64,000 nt of DNA from an uncultured Myxococcales bacterium (GCA_964473255.1 CAYYOT010000004.1:68897-132896); one strand, 5' to 3'; shown: positions 11,107 to 48,053, counted from the first letter of the stretch. Program-made: numbers and translations. The notes: generated from the letters alone by a model not told the origin.

Positions 11107-11107
11107 G

Positions 11108-11503: not shown

Positions 11504-11567
11504 GCCCTCGTGTTACGGCAAGACTGGGGCATCGGGCAATCGGTCCCGACGGATCTTCGAGCCCGTC

Positions 11568-12623
11568 TCAGGGGTTGGCCGGGGTGCGCAGCGCAGCCAT
11601 CCGCGGGTCGGCCAGCAGGGCCTGGATCTCGTCGCGATACTGCAGCCATTCGAAGTCCAGTTCACCGAGCTCGGAACATGTCTCTAGCAAGCCGATCGCA
11701 GACTCGCGGCGTCCGGCACGGGCTTCGTGGAGAGCAAAGTGCAAGGCGACTTCCTGTATCCGTTCGCGGCCGTCTGCCGCCGAGCTGTGCCGCTGCTCCA
11801 GGACGTCTTCGGCCCAACGCACTCCGGCGCCCTGGTCGGTGTCCAGGAGCCACCGCGCGGCCGCGCAGTATGCGGGATGGAGAGGCCAGAGCCGTTGGCG
11901 CAGCGAATTCATCGCCTCGACGTCCCCGAGTGCTTGAGCCGACAGCAGTCCGAGCTCACCCAGCTCAGCCTGTCGAGCCCGGCGGCCCGCTGAGTGCCGG
12001 CGGACTCGCTCCACTACGGCCCGGTGGCGCCCGGCTCTCCAGTCGTCGTACACTTCACGATGCACGACCGCCGGCCACTCCGTCCGAGCCATCACGAGGG
12101 CAAACGTCGAGATGCCGAGCAGCCAGGTCAGAGCACTCGTCCACGAGAGAACGAACAAGGCGAGGACGGCCGCGGTCGTGCACGCCACGGCGATCGCGCC
12201 AGTCCGTCGAAACGCGTCGATCGGGGAGTTTCCGCGGTGCTCCAGCCGATCGCGAAGCCAGACCCCGCCATCCGACGCGGGAAACGGCCACGCCTGAAAG
12301 GTCAGGTATGCCCAGGCCACCGCCGTAGGGCCCCCGACGGCCCTCAGGATGGACGCGTACAGGAGCGTCGGCAGAAGCCCGGCCAGCAGGGTCGCCCGAC
12401 GGACCGGCCACGGATCACCGTCGACGTAATAGGCATCGCCCGCTCCGAACTGGAGATCGAAGCGGACCGGGTGGCCCGTCATCCACGCTCCCAGCACACC
12501 GTGTCCCAGCTCGTGGACGGTCATGACCGCCAGGAGCTGTCCGGCAAAGGATGGAGAGAGGACCGCGGTTACGCCGAGAATGGCGAGGACTTCGACCCGG
12601 ACCCGAACCGTGTTCCGATTCAT
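11568..12623 (-). CDS. Membrane-embedded zinc metalloprotease, site-2-protease (M50)-like, with a C-terminal helical extension
   Basis: An HExxH motif lies in a hydrophobic segment (VHELGHGV) and a downstream DGG motif (FPASDGGVW) matches M50. There are several transmembrane helices. Its stop overlaps the start of the upstream MBL gene. Confidence 0.55.
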   Translation of the reverse strand: MNRNTVRVRVEVLAILGVTAVLSPSFAGQLLAVMTVHELGHGVLGAWMTGHPVRFDLQFGAGDAYYVDGDPWPVRRATLLAGLLPTLLYASILRAVGGPTAVAWAYLTFQAWPFPASDGGVWLRDRLEHRGNSPIDAFRRTGAIAVACTTAAVLALFVLSWTSALTWLLGISTFALVMARTEWPAVVHREVYDDWRAGRHRAVVERVRRHSAGRRARQAELGELGLLSAQALGDVEAMNSLRQRLWPLHPAYCAAARWLLDTDQGAGVRWAEDVLEQRHSSAADGRERIQEVALHFALHEARAGRRESAIGLLETCSELGELDFEWLQYRDEIQALLADPRMAALRTPANP

Positions 12624-13546
12624 TCGCGTCCGGCTTTGGGAGGGCGAGGAATGGGGATCCGGTCTTCATCCTCCGCGACGGCGACCGGGCCGAAGGTCTC
12701 GGCGACTTCCTGGGCCAAGGTCGATGGGTCGTCGTGTTCGGGAGGAAAGCCGGTCAGCACGAGTCGACCGACCCCCGCGGTCTTCGCCAGTCGCCCGGCC
12801 TCGCTCGCGGTCATGGCGTTGCGTCGCTCGGCCCGCTCGGCATCGTGGTCGGGCAGAACGCCGCGACACACGAGGATGGCCGCTCCGAGCGCCAGACGAT
12901 GGGCGGCCAGGCAGGGCCGCGTCGGCGGCAGATAGGCGACCGCCTGCCCCTTGCGCGGCACGCTCACGTCTTCCAGCCGGACGGTCTTACCATCGACTTC
13001 GACCGCGCCCTCTTGCTGCAGGCGCTTGATTTCGGCGCCATGCACCCCGTACTCACGCAGACGCTCGGGCAGCATCGTCTGCCGGTCGCGCTCTTCGAGT
13101 CGAAGCCCAAAGCCGACGGGACGCCCCACGACGGGAGCAGCCAAGAGGCGAAGCTCCTTCTCCTCGACGAAGGGTCCAGGCTCGGTCAAGGGGACGGGCG
13201 TGAGATGAGCCGCGGCGTGATAGACCGAGGCCTTGCGCAGACGCTCGTAGAACACTCGTCCTGAAGCAGGAAATGCGACGTCGATCGCGTGCGGCACTCG
13301 GTCCAAAGAGATCCGCTGGACCAATCCGGCGAGGCCCAAACAATGATCGGGCACGAAACGGCTGACGAACACCCGCGAGATCGACGTCGCGGTGACGTCG
13401 CAATAGATCATCTGCCGCTGTGTCCCCTCGCCCGGGTCGATGAGGAGTCCCTCGTCGTCCCAGCGGATCAACAGGCTGTGAAGGTTGCGGCGCTTGGTCG
13501 GGACATCTGCGCCCGTCCCCAGCACGACGAGCTCCCGTACGGACAT
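12620..13546 (-). CDS. MBL-fold protein resembling ribonuclease Z/BN; the zinc-binding HxHxDH motif is degenerate
   Basis: The N-terminus (VLGTGADVPTKRRNLHSLLIRWDDEGLLIDPGEGTQRQM) matches RNase Z motif I. The canonical HxHxDH is replaced by SRFVPDHCLGLAGL. Confidence 0.5.
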   Translation of the reverse strand: MSVRELVVLGTGADVPTKRRNLHSLLIRWDDEGLLIDPGEGTQRQMIYCDVTATSISRVFVSRFVPDHCLGLAGLVQRISLDRVPHAIDVAFPASGRVFYERLRKASVYHAAAHLTPVPLTEPGPFVEEKELRLLAAPVVGRPVGFGLRLEERDRQTMLPERLREYGVHGAEIKRLQQEGAVEVDGKTVRLEDVSVPRKGQAVAYLPPTRPCLAAHRLALGAAILVCRGVLPDHDAERAERRNAMTASEAGRLAKTAGVGRLVLTGFPPEHDDPSTLAQEVAETFGPVAVAEDEDRIPIPRPPKAGRE

Positions 13547-13556
13547 GGGGAGGGTC

Positions 13557-15902
13557 TCAGCCGGACTGCTTCAGTACGAAGGGGTACTTAACGACCACGA
13601 TGCCCCCGCCCTTCGGTTTGGGGAACTTCCAGGTTCGGATCTTTTGACAGATGCACTGCTCGACCGCTGCATTGTTGAGCGTGGTCTGGTCAACCTTCGC
13701 CATCGTAACCGTGCCCTTACCCGAGATGATGAACTGAGTCGCGACCTTGCCAAAGATCCCGGGGCTGCGACTGAGCTCCTTCTCGTAGCAGTAGCGAATC
13801 TGGGCCAAGTGCTGCTTGATCACCCGCCGGATCACCTCCTTGGGAAGCGACCCCTCGATCCGGACGCGCTCGGTGGTGATGGTGACTCCGCGGTCCTTCT
13901 TCTCGTCGAGCTGTCCGGCGCCCACACCGTAGTCACCGGTACCGCCACCGCCGCGCCCCTTGGTCCCCAGCCCTCCGATTCCGTAGGATGTGTACGACTT
14001 GCCGCCCCCACCGGGTCCGGACCCGCGAAGGCCCAATCCTCCGAAGCCGGAGGCATCGCCGACCCGTGCCCCGGTCACGCCCCCGAGCGCACTCTTGAGC
14101 TCACCGCCCATGCCGGTACCCCCCATGACGGCACCGACGGCGCCCGCCCGACCACCGAAGAGCTTGGTGAGCGCCTGCGTCGCGAGTTCTTTGTCGTCGG
14201 GCTTGCCTTTGTTGGCCCGGCGACCCGGGTTCTTCGGCTTGGCGTCCTTCCGTCCCGCCTTGCCTTGCTTTCCGGCGGCCTTGGCGGCCTTTTCACCAGA
14301 CTTGAGCTTGCTGAGCAGCGCCTGCTGTTTCTTGCGCTGCTCGGGGGAGAGGCGGGTCTGGGTGAACCGATTCACGGCCTGGTAGACCTCCTCGAGATTG
14401 TCCGTCGTTTGCGGCATAGCCAAGAAGCTCGCCACGGCGACGACATGGAGGAACAGCACCAAGATGAAGGTATTCGCGTACTCGTAGCTGATCCGCTCGG
14501 CGAGCGGCACCGGAGGAAGCGAAGTTCGGCGTACATAGCGAACCTGAACTGCGAGCTCGCCGAGATCGACGTAGACCGTCTCCTCGGGCTGCAGCTCGTA
14601 GGTGCCGAAGGCCGGGTCGGCATCCGGGTGGAGGACGCTCTCCAGCGGCAGCACGGGACCATCGAACTTCTCGACTCGACCGGCCGCCGAACGAGGAATG
14701 TGCAGCCGATACTCGGCCGCTTTGTCGCTCATGGACTCCGCGAACACGAACGAGGCAGCTGGGAGACCCCTGGTGGGAACTTCGACGTCGCAGCGCTGAA
14801 CCTTCTGGAATGGTCCCCAGCCGGTGACCTTTCGCTCGTCGCCCAAGGTGACCGTCTTCTCATCGAATACCGTCAGTGAATCGAGGACGACGTCGCTTTT
14901 CCAAAGCGTCTTGATCTCGAGAGCGCGGTGGGTCGGCAGCACCTTCACCGACGCCAGGTTGCTCGGCACGGAGCCCCACGCATGGTCCACGTGGGGCACG
15001 GCCACCCCAGCGTCGTGCCGAGCCGCGGGTGGAAACGGCGCGGTCGAGGTGCTGCTGGTGGGCGGAACCGGCGACACGGCGGGCGCCATGTCCGCGGTAC
15101 TCGCCGAATCGGACGGCGCCGGGGGCGGCGCGCCGGGGAAGCCGCTCGTCGGTGGAGCCTCGGCCTCGACCGGAGGCCCCGAAACGTCGCGGAGCTCTAA
15201 GGCGCGTCCTCCGCTCGCCGGCGCCTCGGCCGGGACCGAAGGCGAGCCGAAACCGCTCGAAGGCGAGCCGAAACCGCTCGAAGGCGAGCCGAAACCGCTG
15301 TTCGGCGGGGACTCCGCCGGAGAGGCCCCGGTGTCGGAGAGCGCGGGAGACGGCGGCGGAAACGAGTCGGTCTGCGCGGGAGCCGGCGGCGAAAACGAGT
15401 CGGTCTGCGCGGGAGACGGCGGCGAGAACGAACCCGTCTGCGCGGGAGACGGCGCCGAGAACGAACCCGTCTGCGCGGGAGGCGACGGCGACAACGAGCC
15501 GGTGTGCGCCGTGGTCGACGCTGGACTCGCGGGAGGCGCCGACGACAATCCCGCAGCCCAGGGCGAAGGCGCGGAGGTCGCCCGCGCAGCCTCCGGCATG
15601 GCGAAACTCGCCCAGTGCAACTCGATTCGGTACGGCCCGACCGTGACGACATCGCCGTCTTCGATCTTTACGCGCGAGACCTTCTGGTCGTTGACGCGGG
15701 TCCCTTCCGGAGACCCCATGTCGATCAGGTTGTAGCCGCCCCCCGATGCTTCGAGTACGGCGTGAATCCGCGCAACCGAGGGCTCGTCGAGCTTCACGTG
15801 GGCCGACGCCAATCGACCGATCTTGAGAAGGTCGCGTTCGAAGGTTTCTTCGAACACGTGCTCGGGACCGCGGTACACGCTGACTTTTACGGGGCGCGCC
15901 AT
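13557..15902 (-). CDS. FHA-domain / TonB-C-domain bitopic envelope protein (GltG/PglI/NfsG-like)
   Basis: 781 aa. The N-terminal FHA domain reads KIGRLASAHVKLDEPSVARIHAVLE...GSPEGTRVNDQKV. It is followed by a long Pro/Ser/Gly repeat linker, one transmembrane helix (FILVLFLHVVAVASFLA), a Lys-rich segment and a C-terminal TonB-C-like domain (IRYCYEKEL...GKGTVTMAKV...). This is the same architecture as Myxococcus GltG/NfsG. Confidence 0.7.
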   Translation of the reverse strand: MARPVKVSVYRGPEHVFEETFERDLLKIGRLASAHVKLDEPSVARIHAVLEASGGGYNLIDMGSPEGTRVNDQKVSRVKIEDGDVVTVGPYRIELHWASFAMPEAARATSAPSPWAAGLSSAPPASPASTTAHTGSLSPSPPAQTGSFSAPSPAQTGSFSPPSPAQTDSFSPPAPAQTDSFPPPSPALSDTGASPAESPPNSGFGSPSSGFGSPSSGFGSPSVPAEAPASGGRALELRDVSGPPVEAEAPPTSGFPGAPPPAPSDSASTADMAPAVSPVPPTSSTSTAPFPPAARHDAGVAVPHVDHAWGSVPSNLASVKVLPTHRALEIKTLWKSDVVLDSLTVFDEKTVTLGDERKVTGWGPFQKVQRCDVEVPTRGLPAASFVFAESMSDKAAEYRLHIPRSAAGRVEKFDGPVLPLESVLHPDADPAFGTYELQPEETVYVDLGELAVQVRYVRRTSLPPVPLAERISYEYANTFILVLFLHVVAVASFLAMPQTTDNLEEVYQAVNRFTQTRLSPEQRKKQQALLSKLKSGEKAAKAAGKQGKAGRKDAKPKNPGRRANKGKPDDKELATQALTKLFGGRAGAVGAVMGGTGMGGELKSALGGVTGARVGDASGFGGLGLRGSGPGGGGKSYTSYGIGGLGTKGRGGGGTGDYGVGAGQLDEKKDRGVTITTERVRIEGSLPKEVIRRVIKQHLAQIRYCYEKELSRSPGIFGKVATQFIISGKGTVTMAKVDQTTLNNAAVEQCICQKIRTWKFPKPKGGGIVVVKYPFVLKQSG
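15238..15300. repeat. Three tandem 21-bp repeats (gaaggcgagccgaaaccgctc) encoding an SSGFGSP heptad repeat in the GltG-like linker
   Basis: Read directly from the sequence. Copies lie at 15238-15258, 15259-15279 and 15280-15300, with one mismatch in the last. Confidence 0.85.
15331..15501. repeat. About five tandem 33-bp repeats (gtctgcgcgggagNcggcgNcgaNaacgaNNcg) encoding an 11-aa PSPAQTxSFSP repeat in the GltG-like linker
   Basis: Four near-perfect copies lie at 15370-15402, 15403-15435, 15436-15468 and 15469-15501, plus a degenerate copy upstream. Confidence 0.85.
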
Positions 15903-15912
15903 GCTGCGGTCC

Positions 15913-16194
15913 TCAGATCTGGGAAACCGAGTCCAAGACGTTGGCTCGGAAATCCTCTCGGACCTTGATGAGGTTGCTGTGTCGGATGCGCTTTCGAATC
16001 TCGACGTAATCGCCGTCGGGCTTCGTCAGGTCGCCGTCGATCGTGTCGTCGTCGAAGCTGACGACGGTCTTCTTTTGATAGACCACCTTTTCCACTTCGA
16101 TGATTTCGGTTTCCTGCGCCAGGGCTGGGACAGCGGGGACGGTCGCCGCAAGAACCAGTCCTCCGGCCAACATCCATGTCTGGATACGGAGCAC
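15913..16194 (-). CDS. Small secreted protein (GltF/NfsF-like by position and size)
   Basis: 93 aa with a signal peptide (MLAGGLVLAATVPAVPALAQE). It lies 10 nt upstream of the GltG-like gene, and its size and position correspond to gltF/nfsF. Confidence 0.5.
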   Translation of the reverse strand: MLRIQTWMLAGGLVLAATVPAVPALAQETEIIEVEKVVYQKKTVVSFDDDTIDGDLTKPDGDYVEIRKRIRHSNLIKVREDFRANVLDSVSQI

Positions 16195-16263
16195 GGTCCA
16201 CGCACTATACGAGACTTTCGTTCTCTTCGCGAAAACCCAGAGATTCCCGAATCGTAGGGAAAG

Positions 16264-16935
16264 CTACGACCCCGGGGAGCCAGACGACGACCGCCGGGAG
16301 CGCCGGAGCACGAAGAGAACCAGACCGACCAGGGCAAACAGCCCCCCACCCCACAAAATCAGCAGGGCATTCGACGGCTCCAGCCAGACCCGGCGCGCTC
16401 CACCCGCCACGCCGACCGTGACTGCGACGATCGGCGCCATCCCGGCCGCAGTGCTCAGCATGAATCGGCCGAACCGATAGCCGGATGCCCCGAGCGCCGC
16501 GTTCACCAGACTGAAGTGGGCGAGCGGAACCCATCGGATCCCGGCGACGGCCAAGAGCCCTTTGGCTCCCTCGGCGTCGACGCGTTCTCTCGCCATCGCC
16601 AGCGCCGGATGGGCTCCCAGGCGCGCGGAAAACAGCCGGCCGGCCCAGTAGGTGACGGCAGCACTGGCCAGGCACCCGAGGCTCGCCGCCAGATAGGCTT
16701 CGGCCGGGGGTAGGAGAACGCCGAGCCCCACGAGCAAGACCGTCAAGGGGAGCATCAGCAGCCCACCGACCACGAAGATGAGGACGATCGCCGGAAACAG
16801 CCATCCGGACGCACGGGCCGACCGCAGCATCGACTCCAAGACATCGAGGTCCAGGTACGTCTTCAGGGGCCCAACCTGCCAGGCGGCAGCCAAGACGAGG
16901 GCCGCCAAGGCCGCGAGGACACCGGTCCGTTTCAC
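16264..16935 (-). CDS. DedA/TVP38/TMEM64-family (SNARE-associated) integral membrane protein
   Basis: 223 aa and polytopic. The loop motif and hydrophobic helices (LPLTVLLVGLGVLL..., GYRFGRFMLSTAAGMAPI) match the DedA family. Its start overlaps the upstream stop in an ATGA. Confidence 0.65.
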   Translation of the reverse strand: MKRTGVLAALAALVLAAAWQVGPLKTYLDLDVLESMLRSARASGWLFPAIVLIFVVGGLLMLPLTVLLVGLGVLLPPAEAYLAASLGCLASAAVTYWAGRLFSARLGAHPALAMARERVDAEGAKGLLAVAGIRWVPLAHFSLVNAALGASGYRFGRFMLSTAAGMAPIVAVTVGVAGGARRVWLEPSNALLILWGGGLFALVGLVLFVLRRSRRSSSGSPGS

Positions 16936-18254
16936 TCGAAGTCGTCGTCGGTCGGAAGCGGTTCGGGTTCGGGTTCGGGCTCCGGCTTGGGCTGCGCTTT
17001 TTTGCGAGACTTCGAGCGGGAGCGCCCCCTGGACTTGGACTTGGGCTTCGGCTTGGGTTCGGCCGGAGCCGGCGTTGCGGCAGCGGGGGCGGCCGGAGTC
17101 GCAGCCGGAGCGACCGCCGCCTCGTCTTCGGCCGTGGTCGGGGGACTTTCGGAGACCATCTGGCGTCGGGCTTCGATCTCCTGGAGCATGGCGAAGGTCT
17201 CACGAGACTCCCCGTCCGAGAGCTGCAGGCTACGCTTCAAGTGGACCTCGGCTCCGTTGAGGTCGTCGAAGTGCCGCAGAAGAAGCACGCCCAGATTGAA
17301 ATGAGCCTCCCCGGAGCCGTCGTCGGCGCCGAGTGCCCGACCGTACGCCTCCCGGGCCCCCTCGAAGTCGGCCTGGGCCTTGAGCGCGATACCTAGATTC
17401 ACCCAAGCGGGGGCGGCATCCGGGTCGAGTTCCGCCATCTTGCGGTACGCGGCGGCGGCACCCGCGTAGTCGCGAAGCTCCAGCGAGATGCGCGCGATTT
17501 CGGCGTAGGACCGGGACCGTTCCGGATCGCTTTCGATGGCGCGCGCGAAAGCCTTCATCGACGCGGCCGTCTCACCCTCGGCCTCGGCCGCGAAGCCCAG
17601 AGCCTCGTGCAGGCACGCCAGGTCGGGCGCAAACTTGAAACCCTGGGCCGCGAGGAGTCGGACGCGACCCCACTGCTTCTTCATCTCCGCGCCTCGCGCC
17701 AAGATGCAGTAGGCCTCGGGGAGCGTCGGCTCGTAGGTCAGCGCCTCACGACACAGCCGTTCCGCATCGTCGACATTTCCGCGCGCCAGACGACGCGAAG
17801 CCAAGGTCACGCGGGCGGCGGCGGCGTCGTTTCGACGCTCCACCTCTTCCCGTAGAAGTTGGATCGCCTCCGCATCCTCGCCGGCCAAGAGAAGTAGACG
17901 CGCGAGGTTCTCCCCCGGTCCCGGGAGCCGAGCATCCTCGGCTCGCGCCCGTCGGTAGGACTGCATTGCGTCGTCGGTCTCTCCCTGTTGCTCTTGAGCG
18001 AGGCCCAGATTGAACCACGCCGCAGCAAAGCCCGGGCGCTCTTTGACGATGCCGCGCATGGTTGCCTCCACGCGCGACCACGTCACGGGCTGACCAGCAT
18101 CGATCTCGCCGCGAACGCGCGCTGCTTCTTCGCGGAACGAAGCCTCGGTATCGGCGACCGGGTCGATGACGTCGGCCCCGGAGGATGGACCGCGGGAGCC
18201 CGCGCACCCGATGCCGACGACCAGACTCAGGGCCAGGCTCGTGCCCCTATTCAC
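16932..18254 (-). CDS. TPR-repeat lipoprotein (GltE/AglT/NfsE-like) with a low-complexity charged C-terminal tail
   Basis: 440 aa. It has a lipoprotein signal (LSLVVGIGCAG), multiple TPR-like repeats, and a tail rich in PA/PKPK/PEPEPEP. Its start overlaps the stop of the GltD-like gene in an ATGA. Confidence 0.6.
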   Translation of the reverse strand: MNRGTSLALSLVVGIGCAGSRGPSSGADVIDPVADTEASFREEAARVRGEIDAGQPVTWSRVEATMRGIVKERPGFAAAWFNLGLAQEQQGETDDAMQSYRRARAEDARLPGPGENLARLLLLAGEDAEAIQLLREEVERRNDAAAARVTLASRRLARGNVDDAERLCREALTYEPTLPEAYCILARGAEMKKQWGRVRLLAAQGFKFAPDLACLHEALGFAAEAEGETAASMKAFARAIESDPERSRSYAEIARISLELRDYAGAAAAYRKMAELDPDAAPAWVNLGIALKAQADFEGAREAYGRALGADDGSGEAHFNLGVLLLRHFDDLNGAEVHLKRSLQLSDGESRETFAMLQEIEARRQMVSESPPTTAEDEAAVAPAATPAAPAAATPAPAEPKPKPKSKSRGRSRSKSRKKAQPKPEPEPEPEPLPTDDDFE

Positions 18255-21055
18255 GGCTGCACCTCCGCCACCGAGTCCGGCGGAGCTTCCGACCGGTCAG
18301 GGATCTCGAGCAAGGGACCCTGCTGCGCCGGGGGGGCCAGCGGGACGGGCACGTCGACCGCAGCCGGTCGCTCGATCAAGGTGGGGATCGCACCCTGCTC
18401 CTCGAGCGCCTCCATGCATCGGGTCGAGTCTCGGGTGAACAGGCCGAGCTCCCGCGATTTCTGCGCGCAAGCCCGGTAGGCCTCGAGCCCGGCCTCCTGC
18501 GCCGGCGCGGCCATGGTCTGAATCTCGTCTTTGAACACGAAGCAGGCGTCCTCGTTGAGCCCCCGCGGGCAGGGAACCGACGTGAGCGCGGCAACGAAGT
18601 CCGTCCAGATACCGGCGATGCGATTGAGGGCGGCCAGCGTGCTGTCGGCCTGCTGGTACCGAGTGACGATGCGAGTGTAGCTCTGGATCAGCTCGTCCCG
18701 CGCCTTCGACTTCGCCGCAACGGATTTTTGAAAGGGCTTGGGGTTCCGAAGATTGGGACGGACGATCCTGGTCTTGATGAACCGCTGATACGGCTGTTCG
18801 AGATCTTCGAGCGCATACAGAGCCACCCACTTACGACCCGCCTCGGGCACCTTGTCGCGGCCCGCCGCGCGGTAGCGGCGCTCCAACTCCCGGCGCAGCT
18901 TTGCTGCCGTCGACGTCTGCCGGAGCTTGCTTCGCAGGGCCGCTTCCCGACCGAGCGCATCCCAGAAACGAGAATCCTTGGGAAACTGTTTTCGGAACGA
19001 CGCGTAGCGTTCCGCGGCTTCTCTGATACGGTCGCCACGCTCGAGGTCGACGGCGACCGTCCAGTAGAGGTCGGCCGTCTCGCCGGTCTTCGATCGACCG
19101 TACCGTTCGATGTAGTTGAGCCGCACTTCGGCCGCCGTCTTCACCCGGTTGACGCCGGCGTAGAAGACCGAAGCATTGTACATCGCGTCCTGCGCGCGCT
19201 CGTCCTCCGGGTAGTTTCGAGCGAAGGCGAGGAACGCGTCGGCAGCCAGGAGGAACTCGGTCCTCTCCTCGTGTTGTCGAGCGACGTAGTGAGCGACGTC
19301 GGCGCGGAGCGGCGAGTCCTCGAACTCGACGAGCAGCCGTTGGCGCAAGGCGCGGGCTCGCTCCTTTTGCCCAGCGCGGTCCCAGGCGAGCGAAGCGTTG
19401 AATAGCGCCTTGTCCGCATTGGGGCTGCGAGGATACTCGGCGTAGAAATCCTCGTAAGCTTGCGCGACCTGACGATCGGTGGCGGACCCGGCTGCAGCCT
19501 GTGCCTCCAGCGCCTGAACCAGCTTGAACTTCGCGAACTGGCCGAACCGAGCCAAATCCTTCGCTAGTCCGGGCCGACCGCGAACCAGCGCTTCGTTCGC
19601 ACGATAGGCGGAAGCCGTCGCATAGAGCGCGCCCCAGTCTTCGCGCAAATTGTGGATGTCCACCACGAGGTTCGCCGAGTATTCGGCCTGCTCGCTTCGT
19701 GGAGCTTCGTTCACGATCGACTCGAATCGCGGAAGCGCTTCGTCGAAGTGATTGTAGTCGTAGAGTATCTTGGCGGCGCGAAATCGAACCTTCTCCCGCT
19801 GCTCCGCCTTGTCCTCGGGGACGAACTGCACATACATCTGGCAGGCGTCGATGAGCCGCAGCATTTGTGGATGGATCTCGACGGGCTCGGTCCCCCCCTT
19901 GGGCGTTTCGATGTCGAGGTCGCGAAGATGCTCCTCGATGGCCAGGATCCGATCGTTGGCCGCGTCGACAACGTGCTTCCCTTCCGGCTCGGCCAAAACG
20001 GTCATTCGGTAAGCGTTCGCCGCTTCGTCGAAACGCTCCAGCTTGTAATAGAGGTCGGCGAGCTGAAAGCGCATCTCGTACGAGGACTCAGCGTCGTCGA
20101 AGACGGCCAGGTAGTCCTCGTACATGGTGAGCGCATGAGCGAACGTGCTCTTGGTCTTCGTCTTTCGAGCCTCTGCGTTCCAGACCTGGGCCAGACGACG
20201 AATCGTAGACTGGGCGAGGAGCTGAGCACTCTCGAAGGCGTCGGCCGCCTCCGGCGACTCCCCGGCCAACGCCTCGAGCTTCTGGTAGCTAGCCACCAGC
20301 TTCTTGCTCTCGGCGACGGTCGCCTTCTTGCTGCCCAGACGAGAGACGAGGTCGACGATGCGCGCCTGACGGTAGGTATTGCGCAGGTCGTCGGGGCGTC
20401 CCGCGATCAGCGTTCGGTAGAGTGCGGCAGACTCGGCGAAGTAGCCGCTCTCGAACCACAGACCGGCCAGCTGGTCGAGCAGCTTCCGACAGCGGTCGCT
20501 CGTGCAGTCATTCTCGCTGAGCAGGTCGGCGAACTCGAGCGGAGCGCGCCGCGGATTACCGACGTGCGCGTAGGTTCGCACGAAGTCCTTCTGCGCTTCC
20601 CGCCCTAGCGCGATCTTGTTCTCGCCGCTGAGCTCACTCGCCAGCTGCGAGTAGAAGACGGTCGCCTTGAACTTCTCCAAAGCCTTTTCCCATTCAGATA
20701 GATTGAAGTAGCACCAGCCCTGTTTGTAGAGCGCGAAGCCGTACACTCGGGAGCGACGATCCTTGGCTGCCTTCTGATAGCTGCGGAGCGCTCGATTGAC
20801 GTCGTTGTTCTCGAAATAGAACTCGCCAAAACCGAGCCAGGCGTCGGACACCAAAGGGCTCTCCGGATACACGCGGATCAGGTCCGCATACACGTCGATC
20901 GCCTCCTGATACTGCTCCTGACTCCAATAGGCTTGGGCCAGAGCGAACAGGACCTCGGGCATGCGCGTATAGCCGGGATAGACCTCCCGAAGCTCGCGAT
21001 ACATGGCCATCGCCGACTGAAGCCACTCTTGGTTTGCTCGCTCGGCGGCCTTCAT
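18251..21055 (-). CDS. Large periplasmic TPR protein, main body (GltD/AgmU/NfsD-like); no signal peptide of its own
   Basis: 934 aa of TPR-like repeats throughout (YWSQEQYQEAIDVYADLIRVYPES..., WCYFNLSEWEKALEKFK...). It lies in the same reading frame as ORF 21074..21430, which carries the signal peptide and the first TPR helices. Confidence 0.6.
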   Translation of the reverse strand: MKAAERANQEWLQSAMAMYRELREVYPGYTRMPEVLFALAQAYWSQEQYQEAIDVYADLIRVYPESPLVSDAWLGFGEFYFENNDVNRALRSYQKAAKDRRSRVYGFALYKQGWCYFNLSEWEKALEKFKATVFYSQLASELSGENKIALGREAQKDFVRTYAHVGNPRRAPLEFADLLSENDCTSDRCRKLLDQLAGLWFESGYFAESAALYRTLIAGRPDDLRNTYRQARIVDLVSRLGSKKATVAESKKLVASYQKLEALAGESPEAADAFESAQLLAQSTIRRLAQVWNAEARKTKTKSTFAHALTMYEDYLAVFDDAESSYEMRFQLADLYYKLERFDEAANAYRMTVLAEPEGKHVVDAANDRILAIEEHLRDLDIETPKGGTEPVEIHPQMLRLIDACQMYVQFVPEDKAEQREKVRFRAAKILYDYNHFDEALPRFESIVNEAPRSEQAEYSANLVVDIHNLREDWGALYATASAYRANEALVRGRPGLAKDLARFGQFAKFKLVQALEAQAAAGSATDRQVAQAYEDFYAEYPRSPNADKALFNASLAWDRAGQKERARALRQRLLVEFEDSPLRADVAHYVARQHEERTEFLLAADAFLAFARNYPEDERAQDAMYNASVFYAGVNRVKTAAEVRLNYIERYGRSKTGETADLYWTVAVDLERGDRIREAAERYASFRKQFPKDSRFWDALGREAALRSKLRQTSTAAKLRRELERRYRAAGRDKVPEAGRKWVALYALEDLEQPYQRFIKTRIVRPNLRNPKPFQKSVAAKSKARDELIQSYTRIVTRYQQADSTLAALNRIAGIWTDFVAALTSVPCPRGLNEDACFVFKDEIQTMAAPAQEAGLEAYRACAQKSRELGLFTRDSTRCMEALEEQGAIPTLIERPAAVDVPVPLAPPAQQGPLLEIPDRSEAPPDSVAEVQP

Positions 21056-21073
21056 CTCCTCGGTCGCTCGCGC

Positions 21074-21430
21074 CTACCCGGCTTCGTCTTCGGCGGCCAC
21101 CCGGCGCTCGTCAGCCTCCTGAGCGCGAAAGAAGTAGAACCCGGCCTTTTCGTAATAGAGCTCACCGAGTCGAAACTTGATATCGGGAATCTCGGCCTCG
21201 TCGGCGCCAAGTTCGAGGAGTCGCAGCAGACCCGCGATCTGGTCGTCCCGCTTGGCCGCAGCCTGAAGTTCGACGCCCTTTCGAAACCGATCGTACGACA
21301 GCGTCGGCGCCGAGGTGTCATCCTTGATCTTCTTGGGTCGGACTCGCGTCTTGCCCTCGGCGATCGCGCCCCCGAGCAGCAGGAGCGATACGGCCCAGGT
21401 TCCGGCCCGGCGGCGGCGGCGGCATCGCAT
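21074..21430 (-). pseudogene. N-terminal signal-peptide fragment of the GltD-like TPR protein, separated from the main body by an apparent in-frame stop (or a 1-nt frameshift)
   Basis: 118 aa: MRCRRRRRAGTWAVSLLLLGGAIAEG... ending ...YYEKAGFYFFRAQEADERRVAAEDEAG*. By track coordinates it is in the same frame as 18251..21055 and separated by only 6 codons. The (GGC)7 tract at 21400-21421 encodes the poly-Arg. Confidence 0.5.
21400..21421. repeat. (GGC)7 trinucleotide tract
   Basis: ccggcggcggcggcggcggcgg on the plus strand. It encodes the RRRRR run in the N-terminus of the GltD-like fragment (minus strand). Confidence 0.7.
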
Positions 21431-21431
21431 G

Positions 21432-23318
21432 TCAGCGGCAGGAGCGGGCGAGCGTCAGCTCATACGTGCCGAGCTCGTCGCGCCAGTACTCCCCTTCAAA
21501 GGGCCAAACCAGCTTCTCGTCATCGGTCCACGCTACGTAGGTTCGTTCGGTCTGCTTGGGCCTGGACTGAACGGCGCGAAGCTGGGACTCGATCCGCTCC
21601 TGCTCGGAGCGCGCCGTCTCGATGTCGATTCGAACCGCTTGCTGGATCAGAGACCGAATGTTTTCCCGCTCCTGGATTAGGCGGCGCTCCACGGCGAGAC
21701 CCGCTTCGGCAGAAAGTCCATCGAGTTTCCGAGTGAGCGCAGCGTCCAGTTCGCCGGCGAGCCGCGTATCGAACCCCAAGTCGGGGATCCGAGACCGCTC
21801 GGAGAGTACTTCGTCGCGAGAACGGTCCAGGCGAGCCAAGTCGGGGTCGGCCAGCGCAAGCTCGAGAATTCTGCTCAAGAGCACGGGGTCACCGCTCTCG
21901 GCCTCCATCAGGTCGTCGTTCTTCAGTCCGTCGAGGATGGAGAGGTATTGTTCGGAGGTTTCGTTGTCTTGCGTCAAACGGCGGAGCTCCTCCAAAAGCG
22001 GTTCGTAGCGCTGCATGAACGCCGCCAGTATGGCCTTGGCCTCGGCATAGCGGCAGTTCTCATAGTAGATGACCGCCTCCAGAACACGAGATTCGGGAAA
22101 ATACGAGTCGGCGAAAAACGGGGCATGGAGCGTCAGGAGGTTGCCCAGCGCCTTCTCGTAGTTGCCCAAGCGGAACTGTGCCCAGCTCTCTTCAAAGAGC
22201 GCCGCCAGCCAGTCCGCCGAGTCCCGACTGACCTTGTTGTAGTAGAAGATCGAGAACGTGGGCTGTGAGGCCCCAAAGTGGGTTCGCGCCAGCTGGAAAA
22301 AGGCGAGCTCTCGGAGTCGGGCATTCGGATGGGGCTGGTCGGGCCGCGTGAGGCGTACCACGTCCTTGAAGGCCTTCAGCGCCTCGTTCTCTTTGCGGTC
22401 GTGAAACAGAACCACCGCTTCGATGAACTTCGCTCGACCGCCGTACTCTGAGTCGGGGTTCACGCGCAGGGCATACTCGCGGGCCTGCTGGAGGTGAGAG
22501 GAGACGGTGAAGGCACCCGAGGGCGGAGTAGCCCCGAAGACGTCGACTTCCAGCTCGATGCCCCCCTCTTCCTTTCCCGCACCGGTCGCGTCGCCGGAAC
22601 CGAACAGGTCCGTACCCACTGAAATCCCGTCGGACCCGGACTTCGTCTCGTTACCGGTGGTGGTTTCACCGGTTCCGAACAAGTCGCCTCCGACGGAGAT
22701 CCCGCCGCCACTGCTCTTCGAGGCGTCAGCGTCGTCGGACCCGAACAGGTCGCCGCTGACGCTGAGTCCCTCGCCCTTCTTCTGCGTGAGCATCGGGCGC
22801 TGAGCCTCGCGCTCCATGCGCAGTCCGGAATTTGCGTGGTACCGCGCGAGGCGGAACAGGAACTCGTCGCGGTACTCGGAGGGGAAATCGGTCGAGCCGA
22901 ACTTCACCAGAGTCTCGCTTACCGACGCGTCGTCGACCATCTTTCGGCCGATGAACAGACACCATTCGAGAGCCGCCTGGTAGTATCGACCGTCCGGCCC
23001 AAGTTCGAGCACCCGAGCGAAAGCATCGAGCGCGCCGTGATACAGCTCGAGCCGATACAGACTCTTGCCCAGCAGGTAAGTCGCCTCGTCCTGGAGCTCC
23101 GGTTCGGTCGCGGACGTTTCCTGTTCGAAGAAGAGTCCTGCCGCCTGCACGTACTCCCGTCGCTCCATGAGGGCCTTGCCTTGCTCGATGGCCGCGCGGG
23201 CCGGGTCGCCCTGCTCGGCGGCAACTTGCCCCAGGCCCGTCGAGCCGGCGTCGTCTTGGCCTGTCGCAGTCAGCGGGACGGCGACCAACACAGCTAGGAG
23301 TCGCATCGAAACCCTCAT
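21432..23318 (-). CDS. Secreted TPR protein with internal GDLFG/ISVG repeat block (GltC/NfsC-like)
   Basis: 628 aa with a signal peptide (MRLLAVLVAVPLTATG) and TPR-like helices. The central repeats read SGDLFGSDDA, ISVGGDLFGTG, ISVGTDLFGSG and VDVFGA. It is 1 nt from the downstream gene and 5 nt from the upstream outer-membrane gene. Confidence 0.55.
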   Translation of the reverse strand: MRVSMRLLAVLVAVPLTATGQDDAGSTGLGQVAAEQGDPARAAIEQGKALMERREYVQAAGLFFEQETSATEPELQDEATYLLGKSLYRLELYHGALDAFARVLELGPDGRYYQAALEWCLFIGRKMVDDASVSETLVKFGSTDFPSEYRDEFLFRLARYHANSGLRMEREAQRPMLTQKKGEGLSVSGDLFGSDDADASKSSGGGISVGGDLFGTGETTTGNETKSGSDGISVGTDLFGSGDATGAGKEEGGIELEVDVFGATPPSGAFTVSSHLQQAREYALRVNPDSEYGGRAKFIEAVVLFHDRKENEALKAFKDVVRLTRPDQPHPNARLRELAFFQLARTHFGASQPTFSIFYYNKVSRDSADWLAALFEESWAQFRLGNYEKALGNLLTLHAPFFADSYFPESRVLEAVIYYENCRYAEAKAILAAFMQRYEPLLEELRRLTQDNETSEQYLSILDGLKNDDLMEAESGDPVLLSRILELALADPDLARLDRSRDEVLSERSRIPDLGFDTRLAGELDAALTRKLDGLSAEAGLAVERRLIQERENIRSLIQQAVRIDIETARSEQERIESQLRAVQSRPKQTERTYVAWTDDEKLVWPFEGEYWRDELGTYELTLARSCR

Positions 23319-23322
23319 CGCA

Positions 23323-24090
23323 TCACTCGTAGTCGTACTCGAATTTGGGAGGCAGGAAGAACGAAACCATCAAACCGAAGAAGCCCGGAGTTCGAAGCTC
23401 CGAGTCTCCGTTGCGCTCCTCCACGAAGAAGTAGTTTCGATACTCGATACGGACGGCTAGCCACTTCAGGGCGAAGAAGCGCATGCCAATGCCGAGGTTA
23501 CCCGCGCCGTGAAGTCCGACGTCCGTACCCACGAGACCACCTCCGGCCGCGATGTAGGTGTCGAAGTGAAGAATGGCATCACCGAACAGTGACATCTTTC
23601 CGTAGATCGGTGCCCACAAGAGGTCGAAGTCGACCAGGTAGTCGAGCTCGTACTGTTCGGTCAGCAGTGCGTCGGTCTCCTCCCGCACGAAACGGACGAC
23701 ATCTGTTTCCTCTTGAACGACCACACCCACGCCGCGGGCCTCGAGCGCGAGACCGTCGGTGATGTGGTACGCGAGCGAGCCGCCCAGCGTCAGCTGACGG
23801 AAGAATGCGTCGTTGAGATTCAGCCCCACGAATGGAGTGACGTCGAATCGGCGACGCTTCAGAAACACCTTCTGTTGCACGGATTTGATGCGATCCGACA
23901 GCTTTTGCTCGTCCTCTTCGGCAGCCTCTTTGGTGACTTCTTCTTCCGCCGAAGTCTCGTCGTCAGACACTTGGGCTCGCGTCTCGGACGGCCACGGCCC
24001 CGAGAGGAGGAAAAACAAGGCCAGGCCGGCCCGGGCAAAGTGTCGACTCATGAGCTGACGCGGGGATGCTACGCCCATCCCGGAACCCAC
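23323..24090 (-). CDS. Outer-membrane beta-barrel protein (GltA/GltB/NfsA/B-like; OmpA-like barrel size)
   Basis: 255 aa with a signal peptide, alternating amphipathic beta-strands (LNLNDAFFRQLTLGGSLAYHITDGLALEARGVGVV...) and an aromatic C-terminal region. It is the first gene of the operon. Confidence 0.55.
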   Translation of the reverse strand: MGSGMGVASPRQLMSRHFARAGLALFFLLSGPWPSETRAQVSDDETSAEEEVTKEAAEEDEQKLSDRIKSVQQKVFLKRRRFDVTPFVGLNLNDAFFRQLTLGGSLAYHITDGLALEARGVGVVVQEETDVVRFVREETDALLTEQYELDYLVDFDLLWAPIYGKMSLFGDAILHFDTYIAAGGGLVGTDVGLHGAGNLGIGMRFFALKWLAVRIEYRNYFFVEERNGDSELRTPGFFGLMVSFFLPPKFEYDYE

Positions 24091-24151
24091 TTCAAATCTT
24101 GTCCCATCGCAAGGGGCGGACCCTCGCTTAACTTAAGTCGGGAGCCGCTCC

Positions 24152-24538
24152 GTGCTACGTCGGAGTCTCATGAGAGCACTCCTTGCCCTCGGATGCGTGG
24201 CCTTCGCCTTTGCGGCCTGCTCGGAGTCGGACGTCGGCCGGTGCTGTGAGGTCTTGATCCAGAACGGCGAAGACCTGCTGCCCGTTTCCGAGGAGATCTC
24301 GCCGGGGAAGTTCATCAACGACGTCTCGCGCGACCCCGCATTCGACTGTGAGAGCCTGACGTGCGTGGCGTTCTTGGGATCCGAGGCCTACTGCACCGCG
24401 GCGTGCAGCAGCGACGAGGACTGCCCGGGAGGCTTCGTTTGCGTCTCGGTGCTGCAGAGCGACCCTCCGCCCGGAAGCTCGATCACCGCGGAGGACATGT
24501 TCTGCGTCCGGGACGAGTTTCGCGCGAGCTGCGATTAG
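24152..24538 (+). CDS. Small secreted Cys-rich protein (lipoprotein-like signal)
   Basis: 128 aa. Signal ALLALGCVAFAFAAC. There are 12 Cys, including CC, CxSLTC and CTAAC patterns. Confidence 0.45.
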   Translation: MLRRSLMRALLALGCVAFAFAACSESDVGRCCEVLIQNGEDLLPVSEEISPGKFINDVSRDPAFDCESLTCVAFLGSEAYCTAACSSDEDCPGGFVCVSVLQSDPPPGSSITAEDMFCVRDEFRASCD

Positions 24539-24564
24539 CGCAAGCCACGAAAACGCTTGGACAT

Positions 24565-24990
24565 TCAGCGCGGGGGGATCGTTCGAGCGACCTGGTCGCG
24601 AAGGTCGACGTTGCCCTTACCCGCAGCGCTGCACACGTCGGCCGGTCGACTGCATTCCATGTAGGAGCCGAGGAACATCTTGCAGCCCTGCGGGTCGAGG
24701 CGCGCCAAGATCCGGACCCCGATGGTCGCGGCCTCCACCCGGGCTTCGGCCTTTTGACCCTCGGCCTCCAAACGACACGCCGGACTGAAGGCCTGCAACC
24801 AGGCCTGCACAGCGAGCTCCTCTCCGTCGAGGTCCTCGGGTACCGATCCGTCGGGAGCCGCCCGGCGGTTCGTCGTCAGATAGCTTCGCACGGCCCGGCT
24901 CCAAGCCGACTGACAGTCCGCTTCGCTTCGCGCCTGGGCTACGCCCATGGACGAGATGAGGACCAACAGCGCGAGCCCCGACCGCAGCAT
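24565..24990 (-). CDS. Secreted hypothetical protein
   Basis: 141 aa with a signal peptide (LALLVLISSMGVAQA) and 6 Cys. Confidence 0.35.
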   Translation of the reverse strand: MLRSGLALLVLISSMGVAQARSEADCQSAWSRAVRSYLTTNRRAAPDGSVPEDLDGEELAVQAWLQAFSPACRLEAEGQKAEARVEAATIGVRILARLDPQGCKMFLGSYMECSRPADVCSAAGKGNVDLRDQVARTIPPR

Positions 24991-25055
24991 GAGCTACGTG
25001 TTACCCTTCATCGGAGAGGGCTTCAAGAAGTTGGCCCTTAGGCACAACGGGCTCA

Positions 25056-25973
25056 TCACGGTCCATCGACGGAGCGGACGGTGCCCAGCAGGTCTTTTTC
25101 GGGGACGAAGCCGAGTTCTCGGCGGGCCGCCGAGCCGTCGACGATACAGTGGTACTGGATATGCCGGAGCTCTGCCGTGGGAAAGCCGGTCATGCCGAGA
25201 CGAAAGCCCCCGGCCAAAAGTGACTTGGCGAGCGGCCCCGGGAGGCTTCGGGGTCGTCGCCCCAAGACCTCCAAGATACGTGAAAGTGGCGCCTCCCCCG
25301 GTCCTACGACGTTGAACACCCCGCGAGCGTCGGTCTGCACCGCGCGGACGAGAACGCGAACGACGTCCTCTTCGTGGATCAGCTGAACCATGGGATCGAA
25401 GCCCATGATCGTCCACGGACGCTCCAGCCGCAGGTAGAGTGTAGGGGCATTCCTTACGCGCGGTCCGACGATGTGAACCGGCCGGAGCAGGACGGTTCCG
25501 ATCTGTGGCTGTCGGTAGAAGAAGCTCTGGACGATGTTGTCGACGGCGACCAGGTCTCGCACGTCGGCATCGTGCTCGGCGCCGAGGAGCGGAGCGTCCT
25601 CGGTCAGAAACTGTGAGTTGTCGGGGTCCGGCCCATAGATGTTCGCGCTGGACAGCATCACGAATCGGCCGACTCCATAGCGAGCGGCCAGCTCGAGGAG
25701 CCGCTGTGTCCCGATCACGTTGTACCGATACTGTCGAACGCGATTCCGCGGGTCGTGCTTGATGCCCAGATGGACGACGGCATCGATTCGACGCTGACGG
25801 AAGACTTCCTCCATGGAGCGCCAGCGCAGGTCACCCTGAATATGGGTCACGTCCTTGGGTAGCCCGTGGATGCTCCGACGATCGACGGCGATCACGTCAT
25901 GGTCGCGGTGGAGTTGCTGGACCAGCAACCGGCCCAGGTTCCCGGCAGCTCCGGTCGTCAAGACGACGCTCAC
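25056..25973 (-). CDS. NAD-dependent epimerase/dehydratase (extended SDR) family protein
   Basis: The N-terminus is TGAAGNLGRLL (Rossmann). The SDR-like catalytic region (SSANIYGP) is present. 305 aa. Confidence 0.7.
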   Translation of the reverse strand: MSVVLTTGAAGNLGRLLVQQLHRDHDVIAVDRRSIHGLPKDVTHIQGDLRWRSMEEVFRQRRIDAVVHLGIKHDPRNRVRQYRYNVIGTQRLLELAARYGVGRFVMLSSANIYGPDPDNSQFLTEDAPLLGAEHDADVRDLVAVDNIVQSFFYRQPQIGTVLLRPVHIVGPRVRNAPTLYLRLERPWTIMGFDPMVQLIHEEDVVRVLVRAVQTDARGVFNVVGPGEAPLSRILEVLGRRPRSLPGPLAKSLLAGGFRLGMTGFPTAELRHIQYHCIVDGSAARRELGFVPEKDLLGTVRSVDGP

Positions 25974-26812
25974 CGGAAGATCCCCTGGCGCTCGACGAGT
26001 CCGCGGTCGAGAAGGCTCGCGATCCGGTCGCGGACCACGTCGATCTTCGTACGGATCACCTGGTCGTCTTCGTTGCCCTCACCCTCGAACCGAAGCGGCT
26101 CCCCGAAGTAGATGCGGTACCGCGTGGGCAGCGGCAACAAGCCGAGCGGGCCGAACCAGGGGAACGTGGGGGTAATCGGAAACGCGGGTGCCCCCACCAT
26201 CCGGCCGATCCCCTCGAGGTTGGCGAGACTGGGGGCCTGCTCCTCGGCCCCCACCACCGCGACGGGAACGATGGGTGCGCCAGCCTGAAGCGCGAGGCGC
26301 ATGAATCCCGACCCGAATCGAGCCAGCTGGTAGCGCCTCGAGAAGGGCTTCGATAGGCCCCGGACGCCCTCGGGAAAGACGAGGATGGCCTCCTCGTTAC
26401 GCAGGAGGCGCAGGCAGTTCTCGGGCGTCCCCACGACTTGGCCAAGCCGCGCCATGAGAACCGAAACGAAGGGCAGCCGCGGGACCCAGCGCTCGATCAT
26501 GGAGCGCGGGACCCGCGGCGGGTCGCGCTCCATGAGCATGGCGCCGGCGATCATCAGTCCGTCGAAGGGGAGCTGGCCCGAATGGTTCGAGCAGAGCAGA
26601 ACCCGCCCCTCGGGGACGTTCTCGATCCCTTCGGTGAGCACGCGAAAGTACCGCGTGTAGAGCCAACCCACCCAGCGGGCGGCCCTGCGGATCGCCTCCG
26701 GGTCGTAGCCGAAGGGATCCACGCCGAACGGTCCCACGTCGGTCGAGAGCTTTCGCAGGCGACCGATCGCTTCCTCTACGTCCACCGGGGGCGAGCGGTC
26801 CTTGGCAGCCAT
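25970..26812 (-). CDS. Lysophospholipid (1-acyl-sn-glycerol-3-phosphate) acyltransferase, PlsC family
   Basis: The NHSGQLPFD motif (HX4D), the FPEG motif (LVFPEGVRG) and the PIVPVAVVG block are present. 280 aa. Its stop overlaps the epimerase start. Confidence 0.7.
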   Translation of the reverse strand: MAAKDRSPPVDVEEAIGRLRKLSTDVGPFGVDPFGYDPEAIRRAARWVGWLYTRYFRVLTEGIENVPEGRVLLCSNHSGQLPFDGLMIAGAMLMERDPPRVPRSMIERWVPRLPFVSVLMARLGQVVGTPENCLRLLRNEEAILVFPEGVRGLSKPFSRRYQLARFGSGFMRLALQAGAPIVPVAVVGAEEQAPSLANLEGIGRMVGAPAFPITPTFPWFGPLGLLPLPTRYRIYFGEPLRFEGEGNEDDQVIRTKIDVVRDRIASLLDRGLVERQGIFR

Positions 26813-26844
26813 GGACGAGGACTGTAATCGCGACCGAGGCCGGT

Positions 26845-39587: not shown

Positions 39588-39589
39588 AG

Positions 39590-48042: not shown

Positions 48043-48053
48043 GATGAAGCGAC

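Follow-up and report, generated by a model that had tools for sequence, protein, structure and literature searches.

A Glt-family gene cluster with a reduced outer-membrane module in an uncultured Myxococcales bacterium

Introduction

In Myxococcus xanthus, the envelope complex of the Agl-Glt machine of adventurous gliding is encoded by two clusters, G2 (gltK/gltB-gltA-gltC) and G1 (gltD-E-F-G-H-I-J), with the motor genes aglRQS in a separate cluster. GltA, GltH, GltI, GltJ and CglB are all essential for M. xanthus gliding, GltK helps to hold the von Willebrand factor type A (VWA) adhesin CglB, and gltD and nfsD mutants are null. The paralogous nfsA-H genes lie in a single region that is syntenic with glt (PMC3858216). 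An ancestral core of GltC, GltD, GltE and GltG plus AglRQS has been proposed, to which GltA, GltB and GltF were added in the ancestor of Myxococcales and Bdellovibrionales, and both compact clusters, such as Bd0828-0838, and the paralogous M. xanthus clusters G3-G5 have been described (PMC3169522). Surveys of glt genes exist for 61 myxobacterial genomes and for Danish metagenome-assembled genomes (MAGs). The present analysis concerns a Glt-family gene string at positions 13557-24090 of a 64,000-nucleotide stretch of DNA (64 kb; hereafter the window) from an uncultured Myxococcales bacterium (GCA_964473255.1, CAYYOT010000004.1:68897-132896), and its place among the related loci of Myxococcota.

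Results

Identification of the gene string

At these positions the minus strand carries seven successive open reading frames (ORFs) with coding-type G+C content at third codon positions (GC3, 0.73-0.83; G+C is about 66% over the whole window), separated, from the outer-membrane protein (OMP) gene to gltG, by 4, 1, -4, -4, 69 and 10 nt (Table 1). Gene content, homology, synteny, topology features and the stop codon discussed below are direct observations. The string is a genuine Glt-family cluster, a relative of the Myxococcus Glt gliding envelope complex: family models for GltC, GltF, GltG, GltE and the barrel match its proteins, a remote GltK homologue is present, the gene order is conserved and the GltG-like protein has the expected topology.

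Pfam alone recovered only FHA and tetratricopeptide repeat (TPR) domains in the Glt-like proteins, and the specific assignments come from NCBIfam. The GltC-like protein matched the equivalog model gliding_GltC (NF033756) with 480.7 bits, above its cutoff of 450, and the GltF-like protein, whose N-terminus is hydrophobic and signal-peptide-like, matched gliding_CglF (NF033764) with 103.2 bits, above its cutoff of 90. The OMP matched TIGR04565 (OMP_myx_plus, the barrel domain common to GltA and GltB) with 121 bits against a cutoff of 60. Among 290 GltC-like homologues, the nearest, from uncultured Myxococcota MAGs, were 51-60% identical, and identity to the GltC of the Corallococcus and M. xanthus G2 loci was 40-42%. 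For the GltE-like protein, which also matched many TPR families in Pfam, the top NCBIfam match was gliding_GltE (NF033758; 121.8 bits, under the cutoff of 225), and its slot between D and F is conserved; its leader has a cysteine at position 17 after a hydrophobic stretch, in an imperfect lipobox (VGIGC), and it is thus predicted to be, probably, a lipoprotein.

The GltG-like protein reached 495.6 bits with gliding_GltG (NF033760), under the cutoff of 650, over profile positions 127-649 of 650, and 114.7 bits with the AgmX/PglI tail model myxo_SS_tail (NF033768), whose cutoff is 40. Its topology runs from an N-terminal FHA domain (nt 15618-15878; PF00498, 50.5 bits) through a Pro/Ser/Ala-rich linker and a single transmembrane helix (residues 475-496, nt 14415-14480) to a TonB-C-like tail of the AgmX/PglI type (nt 13569-13844). 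The cytoplasmic linker contains tandem repeats at residues ~100-300 (AQTGSFS.PSP about four times and SGFGSPS three times); a homologue search with this protein returned only 31 matches, none of them named Myxococcus proteins, and this low-complexity linker probably took up the word candidates of that search. The window proteins are singletons in the public protein collection.

The initial annotation had proposed a Glt/Nfs-like trans-envelope complex, and this is borne out by curated models matching five of the proteins and by gene order co-conserved with glt loci; neither best matches in unrelated families nor a lack of co-conserved order, which it had named together as grounds for rejection, was found. 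Its other statements on the string needed adjustment. Six of the seven genes that it matched to the A-G set do match Glt/Nfs, the 223-aa gene, which it counted without a description, being instead of the VTT/DedA family; gaps of 1-10 nt or ATGA overlaps account for every junction but one, which is 69 nt; the TPR protein of ~1060 aa that it took for one ORF is interrupted by an in-frame TAG; and the string, which it ended at gltG, continues with the same close packing on the same strand into an RNase Z-like gene and two more.

Table 1. Features of the Glt-family locus and its immediate flanks (window positions)
Feature	Position	Strand	Product and remarks
OMP barrel gene, GltB type	23323-24090	-	255 aa
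gltC-like, secreted TPR scaffold	21432-23318	-	628 aa
gltD-like, large periplasmic TPR protein	18251-21430	-	1059 codons, one in-frame stop
gltE-like TPR protein	16932-18254	-	440 aa
VTT/DedA-family inner-membrane protein	16264-16935	-	223 aa
gltF/cglF-like small secreted protein	15913-16194	-	93 aa
gltG-like bitopic protein	13557-15902	-	781 aa
gltK/cglC-like Cys-rich lipoprotein	24152-24538	+	128 aa; divergent from OMP gene
RNase Z-like gene (metallo-beta-lactamase fold), flank, outside machine	12620-13546	-	10 nt past gltG
Two further flank genes	11568-12623 and 11108-11503	-	after RNase Z-like gene

Related loci and gene order across Myxococcota

From an alignment of 19 GltC homologues, a scan of one genome per GTDB species yielded the best 80 loci, and six more were added from contig look-ups to give 86 in total, which were searched by tblastn with all window proteins. 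The window and 13 related loci (among them L001, L003, L004, L007, L008, L010-L014, L086 and L087; loci are designated by L numbers, and several came up twice in the searches) make up a group of close relatives, here termed group 1, in which the layout is a divergent small gene followed by one OMP-C-D-E-F-G, as far as each locus reaches. In a neighbour-joining tree of GltC, calculated without bootstrap, group 1 was monophyletic and sister to a large clade holding most of the two-OMP clusters.

The gene order of the window is shared with the glt loci of 80 or more Myxococcota genomes, including Anaeromyxobacter, Corallococcus and M. xanthus. The genes OMP(s)-C-D-E-F-G are contiguous in about 40 loci, and the order K/OMP-C-D-E-F-G is kept in the 13 close relatives and about 40 more distant loci. 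Many other Myxococcota, including three Anaeromyxobacter species, carry two tandem OMPs followed by C-D-E-F-G in one string. Myxococcaceae (Corallococcus, M. xanthus and others), together with a few neighbouring MAG loci, have two OMPs and C with no D, i.e. the G2 cluster, and in each Myxococcaceae genome among the best 80 loci the sole locus retrieved was this gltK-B-A-C cluster. The one-locus arrangement is therefore the majority state outside Myxococcaceae, with the G1/G2 split seen only in that family and nearby loci, and the unsplit layout is probably ancestral. The compact layout of the window, which had been regarded as special, is not unusual but the common layout in the phylum, and single-string clusters had already been described for nfsA-H and for the 'expanded core' (PMC3169522, PMC3858216). 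In one Bdellovibrionales-labelled MAG locus (L025), a gap of 5.6 kb between gltC and gltD is occupied by a large ORF on the opposite strand and contains no motor genes.

The outer-membrane module

The single OMP of the window, for which an ATG at 24051 is the more likely start, carries an acidic N-terminal periplasmic extension, and its matches to the two tandem barrels of two-OMP loci are of about the same strength. In a neighbour-joining tree of 75 barrels it fell on the side of the gltC-distal barrels (GltB position) of Myxococcaceae and Anaeromyxobacter, with support of 74/100 for the split of the GltA type and 89/100 for the monophyly of group 1. No second TIGR04565 barrel occurs in the 64 kb, leaving no GltA plus GltB pair, and one barrel is present throughout group 1. 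Both barrel types are found in Bdellovibrionales-labelled MAGs, and for this reason the distance trees make loss of the A-type barrel in group 1 more likely than an ancestral single-barrel state.

A dedicated search of the window and the group-1 loci found no GltH/CglE-like sequence. Anaeromyxobacter and many other loci do have such a gene after gltG, and its 205-aa barrel product is CglE/GltH (NF033755, 127.6 bits against a cutoff of 70); barrels of this type (114-128 bits) lie just downstream of gltG in L071, L076, L079, L065, L015-L022, L027 and L038. The single barrel without gltH is hence a property of the whole clade and not of this genome alone.

The divergent gene upstream of the OMP gene encodes a protein with a signal peptide, a lipobox-like motif ('AFAAC') and ten cysteines. 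Taken alone, this protein fails to reach the CglC/GltK model NF033754 (cutoff 60), which the ORF divergent upstream of gltB in the M. xanthus locus (L077) matches with 198 bits. A profile comparison (hhalign) of 11 GltK-like proteins of group 1 with 34 GltK proteins of the Myxococcaceae/Anaeromyxobacter type gave a probability of 98.2% (E 3.2e-14), and the two families have a cysteine pattern in common: the lipobox cysteine, D-x-G-x-x-C, C-E-x-L-x-C-V and Y-C-[ST]-x-x-C. The gene occupies the same divergent position in 13 of 13 group-1 loci, and its product is accordingly predicted from sequence to be a remote homologue of GltK/CglC. Divergent upstream GltK-like genes were observed even in the Bdellovibrionales-labelled MAGs L024 and L025. 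Both GltH and GltK seem to date back further, and to be distributed more widely, than the 2011 scenario implied. The initial annotation had listed only one OMP and no gltH, gltI, gltJ or gltK: the single OMP and the lack of GltH stand, GltI and GltJ likewise went unrecognised in scans not dedicated to them, and the statement on gltK gives way to the remote homologue.

In six relatives (L003:1-1025, L086:835-1899, L007, L008, L010 and L012), a gene for a VWA-domain protein directly follows the gltK-like gene on the same strand, an arrangement that recalls the M. xanthus pair of GltK and the adhesin CglB. An identification of these proteins as CglB was considered and rejected, as NCBIfam gave no CglB match and the L086 protein is without a lipobox; only the resemblance remains. 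The window itself has no VWA-domain gene.

The in-frame stop codon in gltD

The gltD-like gene is interrupted at codon 119 by an in-frame TAG (21074-21076), which divides it into a part of 118 aa, with the signal peptide and the first helices, and a part of 934 aa, and it is stored in the public protein collection as two proteins of these lengths. When rejoined, the protein can be aligned over its full length with the L001 orthologue, which is intact at 1046 aa, at 52% identity and with both fragments conserved; intact orthologues in L001, L003, L004, L086 and L087 have 1043-1085 aa. Identity is 52-64% to the group-1 orthologues and 28-35% to those of Anaeromyxobacter and other contiguous glt loci. 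TPR repeats are recognised in it by Pfam, and its NCBIfam matches included no GltD model.

The stop falls in a variable linker, where the aligned residue in ten relatives is Glu in six, Gln, Thr and Asp in one each, and a gap in L013. As the column is mostly Glu or Gln, the TAG can be explained by a single base change in a GAG or CAG codon. Stop-codon reassignment or readthrough was rejected as an explanation, since TAG terminates five other genes of the window and the interruption in the gltC of L086 is a TGA. Because the signal peptide is on the N-terminal fragment, a real TAG would leave the 934 aa without an export signal, and it would probably disable the machine, given the null phenotype of gltD and nfsD mutants in M. 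xanthus. Either this copy was freshly inactivated or the base is a consensus error of the MAG.

The L086 locus, on a metagenome contig from JGI and the closest relative, has an independent in-frame TGA in gltC (L086:3949), inside a disordered region of 'GIS-x-G-x-DLFG' repeats. The nonsense codons could reflect either metagenome assembly errors or minority alleles, or relaxed selection on the cluster in this sub-lineage.

Motor genes and other components

The absence of TolQ/TolR/ExbBD-type motor genes from the 64 kb, noted in the initial annotation, was upheld by Pfam, tblastn and phmmer --max. The Pfam scans covered 45 of 46 genes called by GC3, all but a 60-aa ORF at 42252-42434, and gave no MotA/ExbB or ExbD family match in those 45; a lipoprotein gene at ~41249-42390, missed by the gene calling, was covered only by the six-frame tblastn and phmmer searches. 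With Escherichia coli TolQ and TolR as queries, tblastn against the window in six frames and 84 loci gave one spurious match (E 0.054), and phmmer --max against all window ORFs gave nothing under E 0.08. AglQ and AglS are reported to be only 8-21% identical to TolR, making TolR a weak probe for them, and for the small motor subunits the negative result therefore rests mainly on Pfam. GltI, GltJ and a giant TPR protein were likewise not recognised in the general window scans, which included no dedicated search for them, and the GltJ model matches only the tail that is shared with GltG.

The inserted gene and the surrounding region

The 223-aa protein encoded between gltE and gltF has about five hydrophobic helices and matches the VTT domain (PF09335, 53 bits, E 6e-14). 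Its gene has the local codon bias (GC3 0.83) and overlaps the gltE stop by ATGA. Searches by tblastn found no counterpart in any of 86 related loci, the two closest (L086 and L087) among them, and comparison of these loci identifies it as a lineage-specific insertion without a Glt or Nfs counterpart. The DedA/VTT family is linked to lipid-carrier handling, and any functional tie between this protein and the Glt proteins would be speculation.

Downstream of gltG, the RNase Z-like protein matches the ribonuclease Z model NF000805 with 321.6 bits, under its cutoff of 416. Of the 13 group-1 loci, 11 have this gene after gltG, the exceptions being L010, which ends inside gltG, and L011, which gave no match; it is probably co-transcribed with gltG, and its recurrence suggests that the transcription unit may extend past the glt genes. 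It is followed, with a 4-nt overlap, by a gene for a 351-aa membrane protein with an HELGH motif and then by one for a 131-aa protein with a C-terminal hydrophobic stretch. Scans of 10900-25100 for sigma-70 promoters and terminators gave nothing informative, and there are no tRNA genes in the window.

On the other side of the cluster, a block at 24565-28209, with genes for a small secreted protein of 141 aa, an NAD-dependent epimerase and an acyltransferase, recurs near the cluster in group-1 loci L001, L006, L012 and L013. A divergent gene in this block, for a sigma-54 activator with an FHA-like N-terminal domain, was seen among the relatives only in L001 and L006. The idea of a sigma-54 promoter, prompted by this nearby activator, was abandoned after a search for TGGCAC-N5-TTGC with at most one mismatch gave 0 matches in the window.

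A separate cluster on the minus strand at 46483-55079 has genes for a 519-aa protein with two FHA domains and TPR, a 729-aa fusion of FHA to a TadA/VirB11-like secretion ATPase (TIGR03819, 102.8 bits), and proteins of 1031 and 615 aa with no family match; this cluster has the look of a secretion or pilus-type ATPase module under FHA regulation. On the plus strand at 36096-41226, a gene for a protein of 1163 aa, in which DUF7151 is repeated seven times and He_PIG Ig-like domains occur, is followed by one for a Kelch-repeat protein, and the products are probably cell-surface proteins.

Discussion

The locus is interpreted here, with moderate confidence and by homology, as encoding the envelope-spanning 'transducer' part of an Agl-Glt-type machine with a role in gliding and adhesion or in surface transport. 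The protein contacts, energy source and cellular function suggested for it are modelled on the M. xanthus literature, in which the contacts and the interaction of AglR with GltG have been described (PMC3169522, PMC11761067). On this model, GltG would sit in the inner membrane with its FHA domain facing the cytoplasm, and its transmembrane helix would dock on a proton-driven, TolQR-like AglRQS motor that is assumed to be encoded elsewhere. The long, disordered periplasmic linker of GltG would span the peptidoglycan and allow the TonB-C-like tail to bind the GltD pillar, while GltE would contact the C-terminal part of GltD and GltF would link the GltG tail with GltC. GltC, in turn, would organise the periplasmic N-terminal extension of the barrel, on which the GltK-like lipoprotein would be placed, possibly holding a surface adhesin. 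The most likely job of such an assembly would be surface-coupled movement, i.e. gliding and adhesion or the directional transport of a surface polymer.

Several points weigh against this interpretation. The scores of the GltG-, GltE- and GltK-like proteins are under the NCBIfam equivalog cutoffs. There is no aglRQS-like motor gene in the 64 kb or up to 10 kb from any of the 84 loci searched. GltH is absent from the window by dedicated search, and a GltA-type barrel, GltI, GltJ and a CglB-like VWA protein were unrecognised there in scans not specifically seeking them. The TAG in gltD would deprive most of that protein of its export signal, and the clade is without any cultured organism.

The strongest alternative, though an unlikely one, is an 'expanded core' Glt-like complex with an envelope role other than motility, such as the transport or organisation of surface polysaccharide, protein or lipid. 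Such a complex would be akin to the core clusters, as yet uncharacterised, of bacteria that do not glide, and to the paralogues G4/G5 of M. xanthus. M. xanthus gliding needs GltA, GltH, GltI and GltJ, of which none was found at the locus (GltI and GltJ in general scans), and Luciano et al. reported that the core complex alone is insufficient for motility (PMC3169522). The insertion of a DedA/VTT-family membrane protein in the operon, and the acyltransferase, epimerase and glycosyltransferase genes nearby, would also suit such a role. However, the GltA/B-type barrel, GltF and GltK are present, and these are additions that Luciano et al. tied to the gliding lineage; Bdellovibrio glides without GltH, GltI, GltJ and GltK; and the DedA gene, unique to this genome, cannot define the system of the clade.

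Decay is a separate question from that of role, and it appears decidedly unlikely that the string is a non-functional remnant in this genome. The premature TAG, which strips the export signal from 88% of GltD, the foreign gene between gltE and gltF, the in-frame TGA in the gltC of L086 and the missing GltA and GltH would all fit such a remnant. Against it, the remaining genes are full length relative to their orthologues, both GltD fragments retain 52% identity and coding-type GC3, and the stop is a single base change of a kind that consensus errors or minority alleles commonly produce in MAGs. The inserted gene has the kind of ATGA overlap with the gltE stop that is seen in settled operons, and the loss of A and H is common to a clade whose other members have intact genes.

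A machine of the Nfs type, spreading spore-coat polysaccharide around a differentiating cell, is highly improbable. The contiguous same-strand string does resemble nfsA-H (PMC3858216), and Nfs is also without GltI and GltJ. However, in published accounts the glt/nfs duplication falls on a terminal branch of the group, whereas the clade of the window is sister to the one with most of the two-OMP clusters; the equivalog cutoffs for GltC and CglF are passed, and each Myxococcaceae genome gives its top match at the G2 glt locus. The presence of a GltK-like gene favours a Glt-like over an Nfs-like identity, as Nfs is reported without a GltK paralogue (PMC3858216), and no barrel of the NfsH/GltH type is found in the window, nor were exo or other spore-coat genes recognised in its family scans. 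Finally, the possibility that generic TPR, OMP and TonB-like proteins resemble Glt/Nfs by domain composition only, as the Pfam result taken by itself might suggest, can be set aside with near certainty, being refuted by specific Glt models at 100-500 bits, by six-gene synteny with named glt loci across the phylum, and by the CglC and CglE equivalog matches of the GltK/GltH neighbours in relatives.

For the Agl-Glt-type transducer, these results mainly confirm existing work: Glt-type clusters occur widely in Myxococcota, and an account of their modular evolution dates from 2011. The new details are confined to the reduced outer-membrane module of a GltK-like lipoprotein and a single GltB-type barrel, one inserted membrane-protein gene and the stop inside gltD. 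Of use to specialists are the finding that the unsplit K/B-A-C-D-E-F-G-H layout is the common one across the 86 loci, and the spread of GltK-like lipoproteins, far wider than the 2011 survey implied, to the clade of the window and to Bdellovibrionales-labelled MAGs. A more specific proposal, tentative and on balance doubtful, is that the clade carries a naturally minimal Glt machine composed of a GltK-like protein, one GltB-type barrel and GltC-D-E-F-G. If such a set were functional without GltA, GltH and perhaps GltI and GltJ, it would be the smallest outer-membrane platform coupling an AglRQS-type motor to the surface, and the VWA-domain protein beside gltK may then be the paired adhesin in several relatives. 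With its single GltB-type barrel and neither GltA nor GltH, the clade could offer a naturally reduced system in which to ask what parts at the outer membrane are indispensable.

Comparison with known systems

A close counterpart is the Agl-Glt machine of M. xanthus, with which the locus shares homologues of GltK, GltB, GltC, GltD, GltE, GltF and GltG in the same relative order and orientation, a divergent gltK, the FHA, transmembrane and TonB-C-like architecture of GltG, and the lack of a linked motor, which is also unlinked in M. xanthus. In contrast to M. xanthus, the window has one locus instead of two and one GltB-type barrel instead of the GltA/GltB pair; its GltK-like protein has fewer residues and only distant similarity, a DedA/VTT gene is present in addition, gltD contains the TAG, GltH is absent, and GltI and GltJ are not recognised at the locus. 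The contiguous glt loci of Anaeromyxobacter (K/B-A-C-D-E-F-G-H; L071, L076 and L079) are similar in their unsplit order, divergent gltK and lack of a linked motor, but they keep both barrels and the CglE/GltH barrel after gltG, whereas the A-type barrel and GltH have disappeared from the clade of the window or were never part of it.

The M. xanthus Nfs system resembles the locus as a single operon-like string of Glt paralogues without GltI or GltJ, with its motor, AglRQS, encoded elsewhere. By its literature description, however, Nfs has two barrels and NfsH, no GltK paralogue and an origin by recent duplication in the Myxococcus lineage, a composition that the window, with one barrel, no H-type barrel and a GltK-like gene, does not match. 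The Bd0828-0838 cluster of Bdellovibrio is likewise a compact Glt-like cluster without GltH, GltI and GltJ in an organism that glides (Luciano et al. 2011), from which it follows that reduced sets can be functional. It differs, as Luciano et al. treat it, in combining agl-type motor genes with the glt homologues, and Bdellovibrio is reported to be without GltK, whereas the window has a GltK-like gene and no linked motor; the Bdellovibrionales-labelled MAG loci, moreover, have two barrels where the window has one. More distantly, Tol-Pal and TonB-ExbBD are mechanistic analogues, in which an inner-membrane proton channel powers a bitopic protein that extends to partners at the outer membrane through a periplasmic linker and a TonB-C-like domain; no TolQ/R, ExbB/D, TolA, TolB or Pal genes are present here, and the Glt arrangement adds to this scheme the FHA domain of GltG and the TPR pillar of GltD, GltE and GltC.

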